Part shown: in pieces, positions 34,576 through 56,112 of the stretch
Numbering within the stretch: the first letter of the stretch is position 1
Layout of the letters: every line of letters begins with the position of its first letter
NCBI GenBank assembly: GCA_964188305.1
Contig: OZ076893.1
From: Podarcis bocagei
Lineage: Eukaryota
Direction: 5' to 3' (one strand)
DNA length: 64,000 bases
The notes under the pieces: generated by a model
Databases searched by the model: none
What the model saw: the letters and a program-made list of their open reading frames with translations, nothing else
Told to the model about the DNA's origin: nothing
Translations under genes and position numbers: made by a program

Positions 34576-35192
34576 GTGAGAGCCACCTTTCAATGGAGAC
34601 CCACCACCGTTTGTCTTTGTCCAGATGCTGCCCAATTTTCACTACCCTTGTGTTACAATTTTCAGCAGACTGATTGCCATTGAAGTGATTGAGAAACCAG
34701 CTCTTCTGTGCTCATGGTGCATGTAGTGGTGTCAGAGTCCTCTGATAGCAGCTCTGAAGGGAAGATGGATTCATTCCATGGTCTGTCTCAGAGGGAAATA
34801 TAGGCACCAGAACTCTCATCTGCTTCTCTGAACCTTGAGGAGGCACTAGTACTACTCTGATTATTGCTTCACAGATTCCTTAGAGATGATCAGGATATGC
34901 CTGAGCAGCTATCCTACGGCTTCAAACCCTAGAGTCCAGAAGAAGCTAGACGCAGCATGCAGAGAGTAGAGCCTCTATTCCAGAGGTGGGGAATCTCCAG
35001 CCTACAGGCCAGGTATGGCCTGCCAACCCTCCCCACTTGGCCAATGAAGTTTGGGAAGCCACAGCCAACCACCTACCCCTGATATCATGCCTAGATAGCA
35101 TCAGGTGTGGGCCATATTAGGATGGGGCTTCAAATGGGCTCCTGATTGTTCATTTGCTGAAATAAGGAAAGGGATTTTGACAGGTGGTGGGG

Positions 35193-35637
35193 TGTCAGGT
35201 TTAGCACTTCTCTCACACAAGACACGGAACGCTGGCAGTTTTACTAGTTGAGGTTTATTTAGCAATAACAGGCATTCAGCAGTCCAGGCTCTCACAACTC
35301 ATTCCTCACTGTCAGAGTCAGTTGACTCAACTGGCTTCCGGCTCCTCCCAAGGCCAGATATACACTACATCCTCCCCTGCCTCCTGCTGGTCGTCCTTTG
35401 TTCTAATTGCTTGCTCCGCCTCCTACTTCTTGGAGCTCCTCCTCCTCTGGAGCTGAATCCAACCCCTTCCTACCACCTGCCTCCTGCCTCCAGCATCTCT
35501 GTGCTGCTGCGAAAACTTACAGGCAGCATTCCAGAGCGAGAAGGGCTTATCTCACTTTCGTTGTGTGAAAGAATCAAGTTTTCCCCTGCCTCTTGCTCCC
35601 CCCTTCAGACTCCTCTCTGCCGGCCATGTCTCTGACA
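35193..35637 (-). mobile_element. Solo LTR (Ty3/Gypsy-like), 445 bp
   Basis: TGTCAG...CTGACA termini and a perfect 5-bp TSD TGGGG. On the minus strand there is a TATA-like GTATAT (~35360) and an AATAAA (~35255). Confidence 0.85.
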
Positions 35638-48078: not shown

Positions 48079-51000
48079 CTTCCACTATTTGGCTCCAGTG
48101 AATTTCTCCCACAATTTCAGCTCTCCCAGTTAAATTATCTTCCAAAGGGGAGCCGGTGCTTAAGGAATGAGACATTCTCTGTAATTCCATTTTGCTCCCC
48201 TTTGAAAAATTGTGTACTGTAGGAAGATATTGAGTAATAAAAGACTGGGCCAAGAATTTATCTCATCAGACCAAGTCAAAAAAAGGGGAGTGGTCCTTTA
48301 TGCAAAGGAGAGCCTATCACTGAAATTTATATTTAAAGATGACCAAGGGAGATTTATTGCAATTGAAATTCAATCACAAGGAGAAAAATTCCTGATTGTG
48401 GGTATCTATGCACCAAATGAAGGAAAATCGGAGTTTATTAAGAAACTACACGAGATTCTGATGGACTATATGGACTATAATATGATCTTGATGGGAGATA
48501 TGAATGGAGTGGTGTCTACAAATATGCACAAGACACAGAGACAGGTAGTCACCAAAGACGGCAGACTACCAAAAACCTTTTTTGACATGACGGACAATAT
48601 GGACTTAGTGGACATTTGGAGAATGAAGAACCCTCTGGGTAGAGAGGGAACTTTTTTCTCTGAGGCTAAAATGACATGGACAAGAATTGACCAAATCTGG
48701 GTAACTAGGGGAATGGCTCCAAAGATTAGCAATGTGGAGATTTGCCCTAAAACTTGCTCAGACCATAATGCTGTGAAGATGGAAATGAAATTGATGCCAA
48801 TGGGTTCTTTTAGATGGAGGATGAACAATACTCTGTTCAGGAACGAAGAGGTGACCAAGAAGGCCCAAAAAAGTCTAAGAGATTACTTTGAGATAAATAT
48901 GAATACTACAGTGGAAAAAAAGAGTAATTTGGGACGCAAGCAAAGCAGTCATGAGAGGATTTCTAATACAACAGAATGCAATCAATAAGAGAACGCAGAA
49001 TGAAAAAAAAGGATAAAATTCTGGAGAAAATAAAGGAAGGAGAGAAGAAACTGAGAGCAAAACCAAAGTCACAGGAGACCCTGAAAGATATAAAGTTATA
49101 CCAAGTACAATATATGAAGCTGATGAATCAGGAAATAGAATGGAAGATTAAACAGATGAGAAAAGACATTTGAATCGGCAAATAAGTGTGGAAAATTGTT
49201 GGCCTGGCAAATGAAAAAAAGACAAAAACTTAATACTATTACGAATTTGGATGTGGAAGGAAAGAATATCCAGAACCCATTGGAGATCAGGAAGTGTTTT
49301 CAGAGGTACTTCAAACAACTTTATACACAGGAGAAGCAGAAAGAAATGGACATTGATCGCTTTTTGAAAATAAATGGGCTACACAAAATCTCTCAGGAAA
49401 AACAGCTAATGTTGAACTACAAAATATCGGACCAGGAAGTGAAAGGGGCTATTCAGAATATGCAAATAGGTAAATCTCCAGGACCAGATGGTTTGACTTC
49501 AAGATATTACAGATCTTTGAAAGAATGGTTAATACAACCTTTGAAGGAAGTCTGCAATGAAATATTGGAAGGGAGAAAGGCACCAGAGTCGTGGAAGGAA
49601 GCCTATATTACACTTATACCAAAAACAGAGACTGAAAAGACACAGCTTAAGAACTACCACCCCATATCATTGCTTAATGTGGATTACAAAATTTTTGCAG
49701 ATATCTTGGCTAAAAGATTGAAAAAGGGCTTAGCAGAAGAAATTCATAAAGACCAAGCGGGCTTTCTCCCGTGCAGACATTTGTCTGATAATACGAGGAA
49801 TATAATTAATATTCTAGAAAAATTACAAGTGAATATCAATACTAAGGCAGTTTTGATATTTGTGGATGCAGAGAGAGCCTTTGACAACATTTCTTGGAGT
49901 TTTATGAAGAAGAATCTACAGGGGATGGGGGTAGGCCAAGGTTTTGAAAATGGTATAGGTGCAATTTATTCTGAACAAAAGGCTAAATTAATTGTGAACA
50001 ATGTAGTGACAGAAGAGTTTAAGATTGAGAAAGAGACACGACAAGGCTGCCCAATTTCTCCATTGCTTTTTATATCGGTCCTTGAGGTTTTGTTAAATAT
50101 GATTAGAAAGGATCAAGAGGTTAAAGGTATACAAGTGGGAGCTAAACAGTACAAACTGAAAGCATTTGCTGATGACTTAGTATTGACTCTACAGGAGCCA
50201 GAATCTAGTACTAAAATGGTACTGGAATTGATTCAAGAATTTGGACAGGTAGCAGGTTTTATGTTGAACAAGATAAAAACTAAGGTTTTAGAGAAAAACT
50301 TAACTGTGAATGAGAGAGAGAAATTTCAGGAGGAGACAGGACTAACGTTGGTTAAGAAAGTGAAATACTTAGGGGTTAACATGACTGCAAAAAATGTGAA
50401 TTTATTTAAAGATAATTATGAAAAATGTTGGACTGAAGTGAAAAAGGATCTAGAAATATGGACAAATTTGAAGTTATCATTGTTAGGCCGAATTGCTGTG
50501 ATCAAAATGAACGTGCTGCCAAGGATGTTGTTTCTGTTTCAAACATTGCAAATCTTAGATAAGATGGATTGTTTCAAGAAGTGGCAGAAAGATATTTCCA
50601 GATTTGTTTGGCAGGGCAAGAAGCCTCGAATAAAATTTAAGATATTAACCGATGCTAAAGAAAGAGGTGGATTTGCCCTGCCAGACCTTAAACTTTACTA
50701 TGAGTTAGCTGCTTTTTGCTGGCTGAGAGAATGGCTGCTTCTTGAAAACACTGACGTGTTGGATTTAGAAGGTTTCAACAATGCATTTGGCTGGCATGCA
50801 TATCTGTGGTATGATAAGGTAAAAGTACATAAAGCGTTTAAAAATCATATTGTTAGAAAAGCATTGTTTAACGTTTGGATAAGATATAAGGATTTGTTAG
50901 AAAAGAAAACCCCAAGATGGCTGTCACCAATGGAAGCGAAGGCACAGAAAAAACTCAATATGGAGGCCAAATGGCCAAAATATTGGGAAATTTTGGAGCA

Positions 51001-51343
51001 TGACGGTGATAGAATAAAATTGCAGAGCTTTGAAAAATTGAAAAACAAAGTGAGAGATTGGCTCCATTATTACCAAACAATGGAGGCTTACAATTTGGAC
51101 AAAAAAGTTGGTTTCCAGGTGGAAAAATCAAAATTGGAAACAGAATTGTTGGATTCAAAAATTAAGAATTTGTCAAGAATGTATAACTTGCTGTTGAAAT
51201 GGAACACTCAGGATGAAATGGTGAAATCAGCTGTGCTGGTCCCGGGGGGGAAAGGTACTAATACCGTAGCCGAGGTTCAGTCCAGAGTCACTAGCAGGGT
51301 AGACGATCACTAGATGAGACGCGAGGTCCGAAACAGGGAGCCG

Positions 51344-51494
51344 GGCGGGGAAACAGGAACGCTGGTAGGGCAGCAGCAGGAAGCCAGGCGGGGAACCGGA
51401 ACACTGGTAGGGCAGAAGCGGGCAACCGGGCGAGGAACAGGAACACCGGAGAGTCAGGAGCAGGAAGCTGGGGGAGGAACAGGCACACCGGGAG
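51344..51494. repeat. 3.5 x 42-43-bp degenerate tandem repeat inside the LTR
   Basis: Units start at 51344, 51387, 51429 and 51471 (GGCGRGGAAC.GGAACAC...). Confidence 0.8.
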
Positions 51495-51582
51495 TGCAGA
51501 TCTAGGTCTGGGTAAAAGCAGGTACTCCACAACGACGTTGCTCCCGCAACCTGGGACCGGGCTGCCTGACCTTTATCTTCTT

Positions 51583-51933
51583 CTAAGGCCGGGGGCGGTC
51601 CCGGCCCCCAGGAGCCCCGCCTCTCCTGGCCTTAAGGCGAGCACTCCTCCTGGGAGAGACCAGTTCCCTTCGCCTCTCTGCCCTAAGCCTCTGCAGTTCA
51701 GGAGAGGCCGAAGGGTTACTGGGCCCCGGGGGAGGCTCACCTGTAGCCACTGAGTCCTCCAGCACCTCTGGGGCCAGAATGGTCTCACCTGGTGCCTGCC
51801 CCTGAGGATCTGGCCCAGGTGCAGGCTCCTCAGCATCTAGGCCTTGCCCCAGTTCAGCCGGCCCTGGAGGCGGGGACTCCTGTGCCGGCTGGGATTCCTC
51901 CGGTTCACTCTCAGACTCGGAATCCCAGGCCAT
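51583..51933 (-). CDS. Putative LTR(U3)-encoded 116-aa protein: acidic/Pro-rich N-terminus, basic C-terminus with SPRRSARL
   Basis: The ATG is at LTR nt 5 (GTGATGG) and the frame is open to a TAG just before a TATA-like GATAAA. The composition is strongly polarised. Expression is not shown. Confidence 0.5.
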   Translation of the reverse strand: MAWDSESESEPEESQPAQESPPPGPAELGQGLDAEEPAPGPDPQGQAPGETILAPEVLEDSVATGEPPPGPSNPSASPELQRLRAERRRELVSPRRSARLKARRGGAPGGRDRPRP

Positions 51934-52884
51934 CACACCAGCTATGATTAAATGGGCACAAGATATTGGGCATAACATAATGATGGCTGACTGGGAACAG
52001 TTATGGACCACGGGTATGAAATTCATGGCATGTAATGCCTTAAGAGAAAACTTAATGAAAATGATTTATAGGTGGTACATGACACCAGTCAAGCTTGCAA
52101 AAATATACCATTTGCCCGACAATAAATGTTGGAAATGTAATGAGACTGAAGGTACATTTTTCCACCTTTGGTGGACATGCCCAAGGATTAAGACATTCTG
52201 GGAGATGATTTATAACGAAATGAAAAAGATATTTAAATATACTTTTTTGAAGAAACCAGAGGCCTTTCTCCTGGGCATGGTCGGCCAATTGGTGTTAAAG
52301 AAAAATAGAATTTTTTTTTATGTATGCAACAACAGCAGCAAGAATACTTATCACGAAGTATTGGAAGACACAAGATTTACCCACACAGGAAGAATGGCAG
52401 ATGAAGTTGATGGACTACATGGAATTGGCGGAAATGACTGGCAGAATCCGAGACCAGGGAGAAGAATCGGTGGAAGAAGATTGGAAAAAGTTTAAAGACT
52501 ACTTACAGAAATATTGTAAAATTAATGAATGTTAGAGAAATGTTGGAATGAAGTTATATGGCTTTAGTAGAAATGTTATAAGGAATTAGGTATAGATAGA
52601 TTAATAGGGTATTAAAGGGAAAAATAAGGTTAGAATGTGTTAAGATAATTATAGGATAGAAAATAGAGGAAGATGGAGAGGAATTGCTGAAACAATTAAT
52701 AGAAGTGGAAGACAAAAAGGGAGGCGTGAGGAGGTCATGGAAACATGTGAATGAAAGATAAGATATTGAAATTGGATTGTGTTTTGAATGGTTTTTGTTC
52801 TGTTTTGTAAATTGTTTGTGTTAGTGTTGTGTAGTGTTTTTTGTACAGTATTGTATTGCTGTATTGTTTTTCTTTGGTTTTTGT

Positions 52885-55800
52885 GTTGTTGTTGTTGTTG
52901 TTGTTTAGTCGTTTAGTCGTGTCCGACTCTTCGTGACCCCATGGACCAGAGCACGCCAGGCACTTCTGTCCTCCACTGCCTCCCGCAGTTTGATCAAACT
53001 CATGCTGGTAGCTTCAAGAACACCATCCAACCATCTCATTCTCTGTCGTCCCCTTCTCCTTGTGCCCTCCATCTTTCCCAACATCAGGGTCTTTTCCAGG
53101 GAGTCTTCTCTTCTCATGAGGTGGCCAAAGTATTGGAGCCTCAGCTTCACGATCTGTCCTTCCAGTGAGCACTCAGGGCTGATTTCCTTAAGAATGGAGA
53201 GGTTTGATCTTCTTGCAGTCCATGGGACTCTCAAGAGTCTCCTCCAGCACCATAATTCAAAAGCATCAATTCTTCGGCGATCAGCCTTCTTTATGGTCCA
53301 GCTCTCACTTCCATACATCACTACTGGGAAAACCATGGCTTTTACTATACGGACCTTTGTTGGCAAGGTGATGTCTCTGCTTTTTAAGATGTTGTCTAGG
53401 TTTGCCATCGCCTTTCTCCCAAGGAGCAGGCGTCTTTTAATTTCGTGACTGCTGTCACCATCTGCACTGATCATGGAGCCCAAGAAAGTAAAATCTCTCA
53501 CTGCCTCCATTTCTTCCCCTTCTATTTGCCAGGAGGTGATGGGTCCAGTGGCCATGATCTTCGTTTTTTTGATGTTGAGCTTCAGACCATATTTTGCGCT
53601 CTCCTCTTTCACCCTCATTAAAAGGTTCTTTAATTCCTCTTCACTTTCTGCTATCAAGGTTGTGTCATCTGCATATCTGAGGTTGTTGATATTTCTTCCG
53701 GCAATCTTAATTCCGGCTTGGGATTCATCCAGCCCAGCCTTTCGCATGATGAGTTCTGCATATAAGTTAAATAAGCAGGGAGACAATATACAGCCTTGCC
53801 GTACTCCTTTCCCAATTTGGAACCAATCAGTTGTTCCATATCCAGTTCTAACTGTAGCTTCTTGTCCCACATAGAGATTTCTCAGGAGACAGATGAGGTG
53901 ATCAGGCACTCCCATTTCTTTAAGAACTTGCCATAGTTTGCTGTGGTCAACACAGTCAAAGGCTTTTGCATAGTCAATGAAGCAGAAGTAGATGTCTTTC
54001 TGGAACTCTCTAGCTTTCTCCATAATCCAGCGCATGTTTGCAATTTGGTCTCTGGTTCCTCTGCCTCTTCTAAATCCAGCTTGCACTTCTGGGAGTTCTC
54101 GGTCCACATACTGCTTGAGCCTTCCTTGTAGAATGTTAAGCATAACCTTGCTAGCGTGTGAAATGAGTGCAATTGTGCGGTAGTTGGAGCATTCTTTGGC
54201 ACTGCCTTTCTTTGGGATTGGGATGTAGACTGATCTTCTCCAATCCTCTGGCCACTGCTGAGTTTTCCAAACTTGCTGGCATATTGAGTGTAGCACCTTA
54301 ACAGCATCATCTTTTAAAATTTTAAACAGTTCAGCTGGAATACCATCACTTCCACTGGCCTTGTTATTTGCAGTGCTTTCTAAGGCCCATTTGACTTCAC
54401 TCTCCAGGATGTCTGGCTCAAGGTCAGCAACCACACTACCTGGGGTGTACGAGACATCCATATCTTTCTGGTATAATTCCTCTGTGTATTCTTGCCACCT
54501 CTTCTTGATGTCTTCTGCTTCAGTTAGGTCTTTACCACTTTTGTCCTTTATTATGGTAATCTTTGTACGAAATGTTCCTTTCATATTTCCGATTTTCTTG
54601 AACAGATCTCTGGTTCTTCCCATTCTGTTGCTTTCCTCTATTTCTTTGCATTGCTCGTTTAAGAAGGCATTCTTGTCTCTCCTTGCTATTCTTTGGAAAT
54701 CTGCATTCAATTTCTTGTATCTTTCATTATCTCCCTCGCATTTTGCTTGCCTTCTCTCCTCCGCTATTTGTAAGGCCTCGTTGGACAGCCACTTTGCTTT
54801 CTTGCATTTCTTTTTCATTGGGATGGTTTTAGTTGCTGCCTCCTGTATAATGTTGCGAGCCTCCACCCATAGTTCTTCAGGCACTCTGTCCAGCAAATCT
54901 AAATCCTTAAACCTGTTCCTCACTTCCACTGTGTATAAGGGATTTGGTTTAGATTGTATCTTACCTGTCCAGTGGTTTTTCCTACTTTCTTCAGTTTAAG
55001 CTTGAATTTTGCTATAAGAAGCTGATGATCTGAGCCACAGTCAGCTCCAGGTCTTGTTTTTGCTGACTGTATAGAGCTTCTCCATCTTTGGCTGCAGAGA
55101 ATATAATCAATCTGATTTCGATGATGCCCATCTGGGGATGTCCATGTGTAGAGTCGTCTCTTGTGTTGTTGGAAAAGCGTGTTTGTGATGACCAACTTGT
55201 TCTCTTGGCAGAACTCTATTAGCCTTTGCCCTGCTTCGTTTTGATCTCCAAGGCCAAACTTGCCAGTTGTTCCTTTTATCTCTTGATTCCCTACTTTAGC
55301 ATTCCAATCACCTATAATGAGCAGAACATCCTTCTTTGGTGTCACTTCTATAAGGTCTTGTAAGTCTTCATAGAATTGGTCAATTTCAGTTTCTTCAGCA
55401 CCAGTAGTTGGTGCATACACTTGGATTACTGTGATGTTAAAAGGTCTGCCTTGGATTCGTATCGAGATCATTCTATCATTTTTGAGACTGCATCCCAGTA
55501 CAGCTTTCGCCACTCTTTTGTTGACTATGAGGGCCACTCCATTTCTTTTACGGGTTTCTTGCCCACAGTAGTAGATATGATAGTCATCCGAACTGAATTC
55601 GCCCATTCCCGTCCATTTTAGCTCACTGATGCCCAGGATGTCAATATTTATTCTCGCCATCTCATTTTTGACCACATCCAACTTACCCAGGTTCATGGTT
55701 CTTACATTCCAGGTTCCTATGCAATATTTTTCTTTACAGCATTGGACTTTCCTTTCGCTTCCATGCATATCCGCAACTGAGCGTCCTTTCAGCTTTGGCC

Positions 55801-56112
55801 CAGCCGCTTCATCAGCTCTGGATCTACTTGTACTTGTCCTCCGCTCTTCCCCAGTAGCATGTTGGACACCTTCCGACCTGAGGGGCTCATCTTCCAGTGT
55901 CATAACTTTTATATGCCTGTTGTCTTTGTCCATGGAGTTTTCTTGGCAGGGATACTGGAGTGGCTTGCCGGTTCCTACTCCAGGTGGATCACGTTTGGTC
56001 AAAACTCTCCACTATGACCTGTTCATCTTGGGTGCCCTGCTCGGCATCGTTCATAGCTTCTCTGAGTTCTTCAAGCCCCTTCGCCACGGCAAGGCAGTGA
56101 TCCATGAAGGGG
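52885..56112 (-). mobile_element. Full-length BovB (RTE clade) LINE
   Basis: 3.2 kb, (CAA)n tail, 11-bp TSD TTGGTTTTTGT (52874-84, 56113-23), and the 5' UTR is present. Confidence 0.96.
52905..55933 (-). pseudogene. BovB APE-RT ORF with a single frameshift near 54932
   Basis: Endonuclease motifs GTWNVR, GISE, QVYAPT, GDWNAK, NQIDYI, GSDH and RT motifs RQGCILSP, LRYADD, split over two overlapping ORFs. The likely start is MDKDNR at 55933. Confidence 0.93.

Follow-up and report, generated by a model that had tools for sequence, protein, structure and literature searches.

The window analysed here is a 64,000-nt stretch of contig OZ076893.1 from the Podarcis bocagei assembly GCA_964188305.1. 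It contains a solo LTR inserted into a LINE (Table 1), and the extent, termini and target-site duplication of this LTR bear out an earlier interpretation made without database searches (hereafter the sequence-only reading), which had described a minus-strand solo LTR starting with TGTG-ATG. The intact 116-codon ORF quoted there was recovered with the same sequence. Its ATG lies four bases into the LTR, within the terminal TGTGATG, and its product is acidic and proline-rich first and basic last, in the order that had been described. A second LINE with endonuclease-like and reverse transcriptase frames, which may be RTE/Bov-B-like, occupies positions 52905-55933 on the minus strand. The reverse nesting is also found in this genome, a LINE of the kind that hosts the solo LTR being inserted in the integrase of a family A element (locus L032, 2809-4570).

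Table 1. Positions of the two solo LTRs, the U3 frame and associated features in the window
Feature	Position	Strand	Remark
Solo LTR of chromovirus family A, 706 nt, TG...CA	51232..51937	-	Same LTR flanks full-length gag-pol elements
U3 frame	51583..51933	-	ATG at 51933, TAG ending at 51583, 116 codons; C-terminal 116 residues of Pol/integrase in full-length copies
RRSARL, HMGN-like motif	51634..51651	-	ORF codons 95-100
GATAAA, TATA-like box	51572..51577	-	30 nt upstream of the predicted start site; spacing 30-31 nt in 4/4 family A elements
Stretch of 10 nt that can pair with the primer binding site of full-length copies	51538..51547	-	Predicted RNA 5' end and self-primer, U3/R border
Four 42-nt tandem repeats, R/U5	51330..51500		
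Target-site duplication, upstream copy, 5 bp	51938..51942	-	One mismatch against the other copy
Target-site duplication, downstream copy, 5 bp	51227..51231	-	
Host LINE ORF2 (RT, zinc-binding region)	49211..52535	+	Interrupted by the solo LTR
Decayed solo LTR of family B, sequence unrelated to family A	35193..35637	-	Acidic-then-basic U3 frame

The openness of the frame alone is weak evidence of coding, because the U3 has a GC content of 67% and the fixed frame stays open over 348 nt in 3.6% of shuffles; the +1 sense frame of the U3 contains one stop only. Among the best 40 of 1863 candidate genome matches to the LTR, the frame is open over 115-116 codons in 36 and RRSARL is intact in 34, but this retention, which had been proposed as a check, is barely informative because the copies are 96-99% identical. 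The motif RRSAR[LI] arises in 9e-5 of whole-ORF shuffles and in 1e-3 of shuffles of the last 40 residues. No family, including HMG14/17, was matched by the 116-residue protein in a Pfam search at E up to 1, and an ESM Atlas search gave no usable match. The ORF stands above chance through its continuity with pol, through selection and through the recurrence of the motif in other families. The ORF is real without being a gene of its own. Within the window's solo LTR it precedes the predicted start site and is carried along as a passenger.

Family A, to which the LTR belongs, is a large and young family of Tf1/Sushi-type chromoviruses. In two-LTR copies of three subfamilies, gag-pol forms one open frame of 1558-1593 codons from stop to stop, with the domain order gag-PR-RT-RH-IN-SH3-chromo and a chromodomain (PF00385) scoring 53.7 bits, over the cut-off. 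This order with a C-terminal chromodomain, the paired TG...CA LTRs, the polypurine tract and the short target duplication are those of Ty3/Gypsy chromoviruses, in agreement with the earlier label of a Gypsy-like LTR. The named proteins nearest to the family A gag-pol come from Podarcis, and a first homologue search returned mostly gene models and chromodomain proteins. Past the chromodomain, the pol frame crosses the polypurine tract and ends in the 3' LTR with the sequence of the window ORF. The sequence-only reading had offered such a Pol/integrase read-through into U3 as one of two options, and this is what the two-LTR copies contain. The LTR comes next in 74 of 75 distinct chromodomain-bearing loci; the junction is in frame in 53 of these 74, and RRSARL is reached in 48, a share that is not a genome-wide estimate because the loci were chosen by protein similarity, one search including the junction itself. 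The LTRs of one element (L213, 2213-2959 and 7342-8051) are only 91% identical and unequal in length, suggesting recombination between subfamilies.

In the other 21 of 74 junctions, the frame is shifted by changes in the length of a G run before the LTR, by loss as well as gain and in all large subfamilies. The nearest neighbour of an off-frame copy is also off-frame at a proportion of 0.57 vs 0.27 expected (p 0.019), so tail-less copies may propagate. Some close off-frame pairs have shifts of opposite sign, a pattern more consistent with recurrence than with descent. The variation in G-run length may result from slippage during reverse transcription, from a frameshift hot spot or from assembly error or artefact. 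At family A junctions such as L056, L116 and L121 the G runs vary, as compared with three private indels in the 730 nt upstream.

The limits of U3 were deduced from the predicted priming site. Just behind the 5' LTR lie bases that can pair, over 10 nt, with an LTR-internal site located 30-31 nt past GATAAA in four of four family A elements, and self-priming is likewise predicted over 11 nt in two of two elements of a further family (family C); 0.8% of shuffled sites match the self-primer. Tf1/Sushi elements prime reverse transcription from their RNA's own 5' end (PMC6317226), and the primer site of family A is predicted to be complementary to the element's own 5' end. A self-primer 30 nt past GATAAA would place the transcription start near 51547, with GATAAA as the TATA box and the whole ORF in U3, supporting the U3 placement and the downstream TATA-like element proposed earlier. 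Being wholly in U3, the ORF would be transcribed only at the 3' end of the genomic RNA and there forms the last part of pol. GATAAA was also considered as the poly(A) signal of this LTR, which has no AATAAA, and was rejected on its 30-nt spacing to the self-primer. The ATG of the ORF is part of the terminal att sequence of the LTR, described as TGTYANR for Sushi (PMC3601003), and is absent in several related tails.

In comparisons of natural copies from three subfamilies, dN/dS of the U3 between subfamilies is 0.23-0.47 in the pol frame (five non-independent pairs; p 0.001-0.051), compared with 0.99-5.4 in the other sense frames and 0.08-0.16 in the integrase-chromodomain region. The antisense frame sharing third positions mirrors the signal of the pol frame. 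Two copies of one subfamily, with only 7 U3 differences, gave a dN/dS of 0.99. In 68 LTR copies, variants common to at least three copies comprise 31 synonymous, 29 nonsynonymous and 0 stop changes (omega 0.40, p 3e-4), whereas private variants comprise 16 synonymous, 50 nonsynonymous and 3 stop changes (omega 1.4; Fisher p 0.001 for shared vs private). The one shared indel in U3 is 18 nt long, and of the 23 shared indels past the stop, 16 would break the frame. The pol-frame dN/dS, the pattern of shared variants and the in-frame indel indicate that the tail is kept as protein, and two of the checks proposed earlier, dN/dS (not near 1) and indel length relative to the region after the stop, came out in favour of coding. 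In the pol frame the tail evolves under purifying selection and is less constrained than the enzyme. For the last 45 codons alone, selection is significant in one of five subfamily pairs. The motif codons of family A are invariant even at silent sites, and a DNA-level constraint on the motif is therefore possible.

Chromoviruses of Anolis, which are 58-59% identical to family A in the integrase, also carry post-chromodomain tails that are acidic first and variable in length, with the junction pattern seen in family A. Sixteen of 17 full Anolis tails end in RRS[A/L]RIAA (RRSARIAA in 12, RRSLRIAA in 4), the 17 comprising two cluster representatives and 15 of 28 listed members, of which the remainder are partial models. 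Their identity is 45-100% in the tail (mean 67%) vs 89-100% in SH3-chromo (mean 95%), and the best-conserved 8-residue window of the tails is the motif, narrowly (0.96 vs 0.95). The tails of family A and Anolis are largely unrelated; blastp matched them only over 37 residues, an S/E/P-rich stretch that does not include the motif. The lacertid and anole lineages diverged well over 100 million years ago. The motif may be common to elements of both through transfer between hosts. In addition, the ENA protein P0344 has RRSARIAAR in a 29-residue tail and groups with frog elements (support 94, quick tree). The motif RRSxR occurs upstream of the chromodomain three times in 229,816 residues of 213 polyproteins; after the chromodomain it was found in 6 of 213 and 1 of 115 homologues, many being partial gene models, and two of these cases are short fungal-type ends adjoining the purine tract.

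Other tails share the charge pattern. The pol of family C runs 116 codons into its own LTR, and the tails of family C, Vipera (P0322), Rhineura (P0297) and P0033 are acidic-then-basic and have no RRSxR[LI]; in all seven tails profiled the net charge goes from acidic to basic towards the end. A quick SH3-chromo tree placed all the long acidic-basic tails in one squamate group (support 88), the relatives in this tree being frog, fish-like and fungal-type elements, and the branch of family C being long. The Anolis, Vipera, Rhineura and P0344 elements were analysed as proteins, their LTR overlap being deduced from junction residues. In family C (L208, 6797-7145), pol terminates about 25 nt beyond the predicted self-primer site, so the frame enters R. 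Contig C19, representing 6% of the genome, holds 23 of the 36 best family C copies, many near-identical, and family A is also frequent there; this contig could be a non-recombining sex chromosome.

The window also contains a copy of family B (Table 1), the LTR copies of which are 77-85% identical with a U3 frame of about 116 codons, a length of LTR coding sequence also seen in families A and C. The window copy encodes RRSKQL at 35404-35421 and other natural copies, such as L080, encode RRSKRL, with codons that differ from those of family A. Selection on family B is not significant (omega 0.74, p 0.19), and its internal region and pol were not found in genome searches. Searches of the genome with P0010, PF00385 and P0033 for other chromovirus families returned family A almost exclusively. 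Adjoining the family B LTR on the plus strand (34730-35182) is a third, old LTR-like sequence (TGTCAG...TGACA) with two partial genome matches only. A decayed 3' LTR of yet another family (L227, 1507-2030, reverse strand) has a purine tract and an acidic-then-basic frame in pieces.

The HMGN2 segment resolved in the H2A-H2B acidic patch is RRSAR, and PPRRSSRLT of Dsup binds the patch like HMGN2 (PMC12487698). Binding of yeast Dot5 through RRSARIAT requires its three arginines and the acidic patch (PMC13347269), and the same patch is what foamy virus Gag and MLV p12 use to keep their integration complex on chromatin (PMC9040877). The family A tail has R-R-S-x-R-[L/I] with three arginines at the site that the sequence-only reading had named as HMGN-type. 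Its further likeness to HMGN proteins ends at seven of eight core residues, RRSARLKA against RRSARLSA, and the HMG14/17 domain is not matched. We favour, with moderate confidence, the reading that the frame is the C-terminal integrase tail of a Tf1/Sushi-type chromovirus, made by translating gag-pol to its end in the 3' LTR, and that RRSARL is likely an arginine anchor in the H2A-H2B acidic patch. This reading builds on the observed read-through, post-chromodomain position and purifying selection, and on the recurrence of the motif in otherwise diverged tails. The tail would stay attached to mature integrase, its acidic, proline-rich part may form a disordered, flexible spacer, and the motif would engage the acidic patch in the manner of HMGN, Dsup and Dot5. 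Next to the chromodomain, it could hold the integration complex on nucleosomes, a role that would be that of the Gag CBS and p12 in foamy virus and MLV. Chromatin tethering by the tail is plausible on these comparisons and better supported than from the window sequence alone. A complex prediction of H2A, H2B and tail residues 76-110, run without controls (score 0.02, mark 0.34), was not used as evidence.

As the main alternative, the basic end of the tail might be a nuclear localization signal or a non-specific grip on DNA, RRSARL being one spelling of a basic patch. Every profiled tail ends net basic after its acidic part, and because four tailed lineages have basic clusters without RRSxR[LI], the shared feature of the tails may be basic charge. 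NLS-like stretches are reported for CRM integrases (PMC3605345), and an NLS of the Ty1 integrase is named in the literature. This account leaves unexplained the invariant Ser and the aliphatic residue that follows the third Arg, which are kept in 16 of 17 Anolis tails while neighbouring residues vary and position 4 is A or L, as well as the identical eight residues in P0344. It is considered rather unlikely, and NLS and nucleosome-anchor roles can coexist. A further reading, in which pol simply runs on across a GC-rich promoter and the extra residues are tolerated, with conservation at the DNA level and a chance motif, would account for the scarcity of stops in the GC-rich U3, for the unvaried silent sites of the family A motif codons and for the 21 of 74 frameshifted junctions. 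Nevertheless, the synonymous excess is confined to the pol frame and its mirror antisense frame, the indels are in frame, and the motif recurs in unrelated tails and with other codons. The selection data and the conservation of the Anolis motif largely refute this reading, which we regard as very improbable.

The other option of the sequence-only reading was a separate small protein. Its RNA could be spliced or start internally, or come from host transcription that continues into solo LTRs. The ATG has G at -3 and +4, and a junction ATG is also present in Anolis, Rhineura and P0344. However, it lies in the terminal sequence recognized by integrase, it is missing in Vipera, in the Logan record P0033 and in family C, and the frame is upstream of the predicted start site. 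Several Podarcis gene models (P0003, P0005-P0007 and P0016) begin at the methionine of the LTR and fuse the U3 frame with gag or with a receptor-like gene of the host; these are predictions, probably artefacts. Four raw-read RNA runs under the same species label were sampled (70-186 reads each, from 6-12% of the run). Both bulk runs have few sense-strand reads over the internal region, and sense reads on the 3' part of U3 reach about ten times that depth, an excess that is expected because there are thousands of solo LTRs. The splicing into the ORF that had been suggested found no support, no joint reaching at least 3 reads and no pile-up of starts or ends appearing in the four runs, whose depth is below that for mapping start sites or excluding splicing. 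An additional small protein of this kind is thus judged improbable.

If the nucleosome-anchor reading is right and the motif binds, the integrase would carry an HMGN-type acidic-patch anchor, the same solution as in foamy virus and MLV Gag, and would be one case of the wider set of HMGN-motif proteins predicted by PMC12487698. The access to and choice of chromatin by vertebrate Gypsy elements have been little studied, and the chromodomain has so far been the sole candidate. As in plant CRM elements, a single U3, here of an animal retrotransposon, answers to protein and promoter constraints alike, and the read-through explains spurious lizard gene models starting in family A LTRs. A bolder extension, which we hold to be quite unlikely, is that an HMGN-type anchor is a recurring, promoter-encoded module of vertebrate chromovirus integrases that would form, together with the chromodomain, a two-point nucleosome reader, that G-run slippage would give forms with and without it, and that the solo LTRs, in their thousands and each with an initial ATG in favourable context, would be a dispersed stock of host-expressible genes for HMGN-mimic microproteins.

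Coding sequences overlapping the U3 of the 3' LTR are those of MMTV sag and lentiviral nef, which are separate proteins made from their own RNAs. Family A likewise codes in the U3 of the 3' LTR, unlike them as an extension of pol in a continuous frame. Its relatives in the vertebrate V-clade of the Tf1/Sushi group (Sushi-ichi and Amn, as grouped in PMC6317226) share with it the Gypsy domain order, the chromodomain at the end of integrase, the lack of a tRNA primer site and the self-priming that is predicted for family A. What sets family A apart from these relatives is the selected tail of about 115 residues encoded in U3 after the chromodomain; in most fungal-, fish- and frog-type homologues observed, tails are short or unrelated to that of family A. 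The sequence-only reading knew of no U3 coding in Gypsy LTRs, which does not hold for plants: in CRM group A chromoviruses the polyprotein extends into the 3' LTR, as it does here, and the targeting motif is encoded there (PMC3059260, PMC3605345). CRM has the CR motif instead of a chromodomain and is primed by tRNA-Met, whereas family A, in a lizard rather than a plant host, has kept the chromodomain, added an HMGN-like motif and has a predicted self-priming site. Read-through into the LTR is therefore already known from plant CRM. In the mostly open-access literature searched, neither an HMGN-like or acidic-patch motif on a retrotransposon integrase nor U3 read-through in reptile elements was found. 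The proteins appear in UniRef under generic names. With HMGN, family A shares the RRSAR core and all three arginines (PMC12487698), and the Anolis tails equal Dot5 over the seven residues RRSARIA (PMC13347269); in contrast to HMGN, Dsup and Dot5, the motif here stands at the end of a retrotransposon polyprotein and is known from its sequence. The foamy virus Gag chromatin-binding site and MLV p12 (PMC9040877) are the closest parallel to the role proposed here, being retroelement arginine anchors that tether the integration complex to the acidic patch; they are Gag products of other sequence, whereas the candidate anchor of family A is on integrase and LTR-coded.
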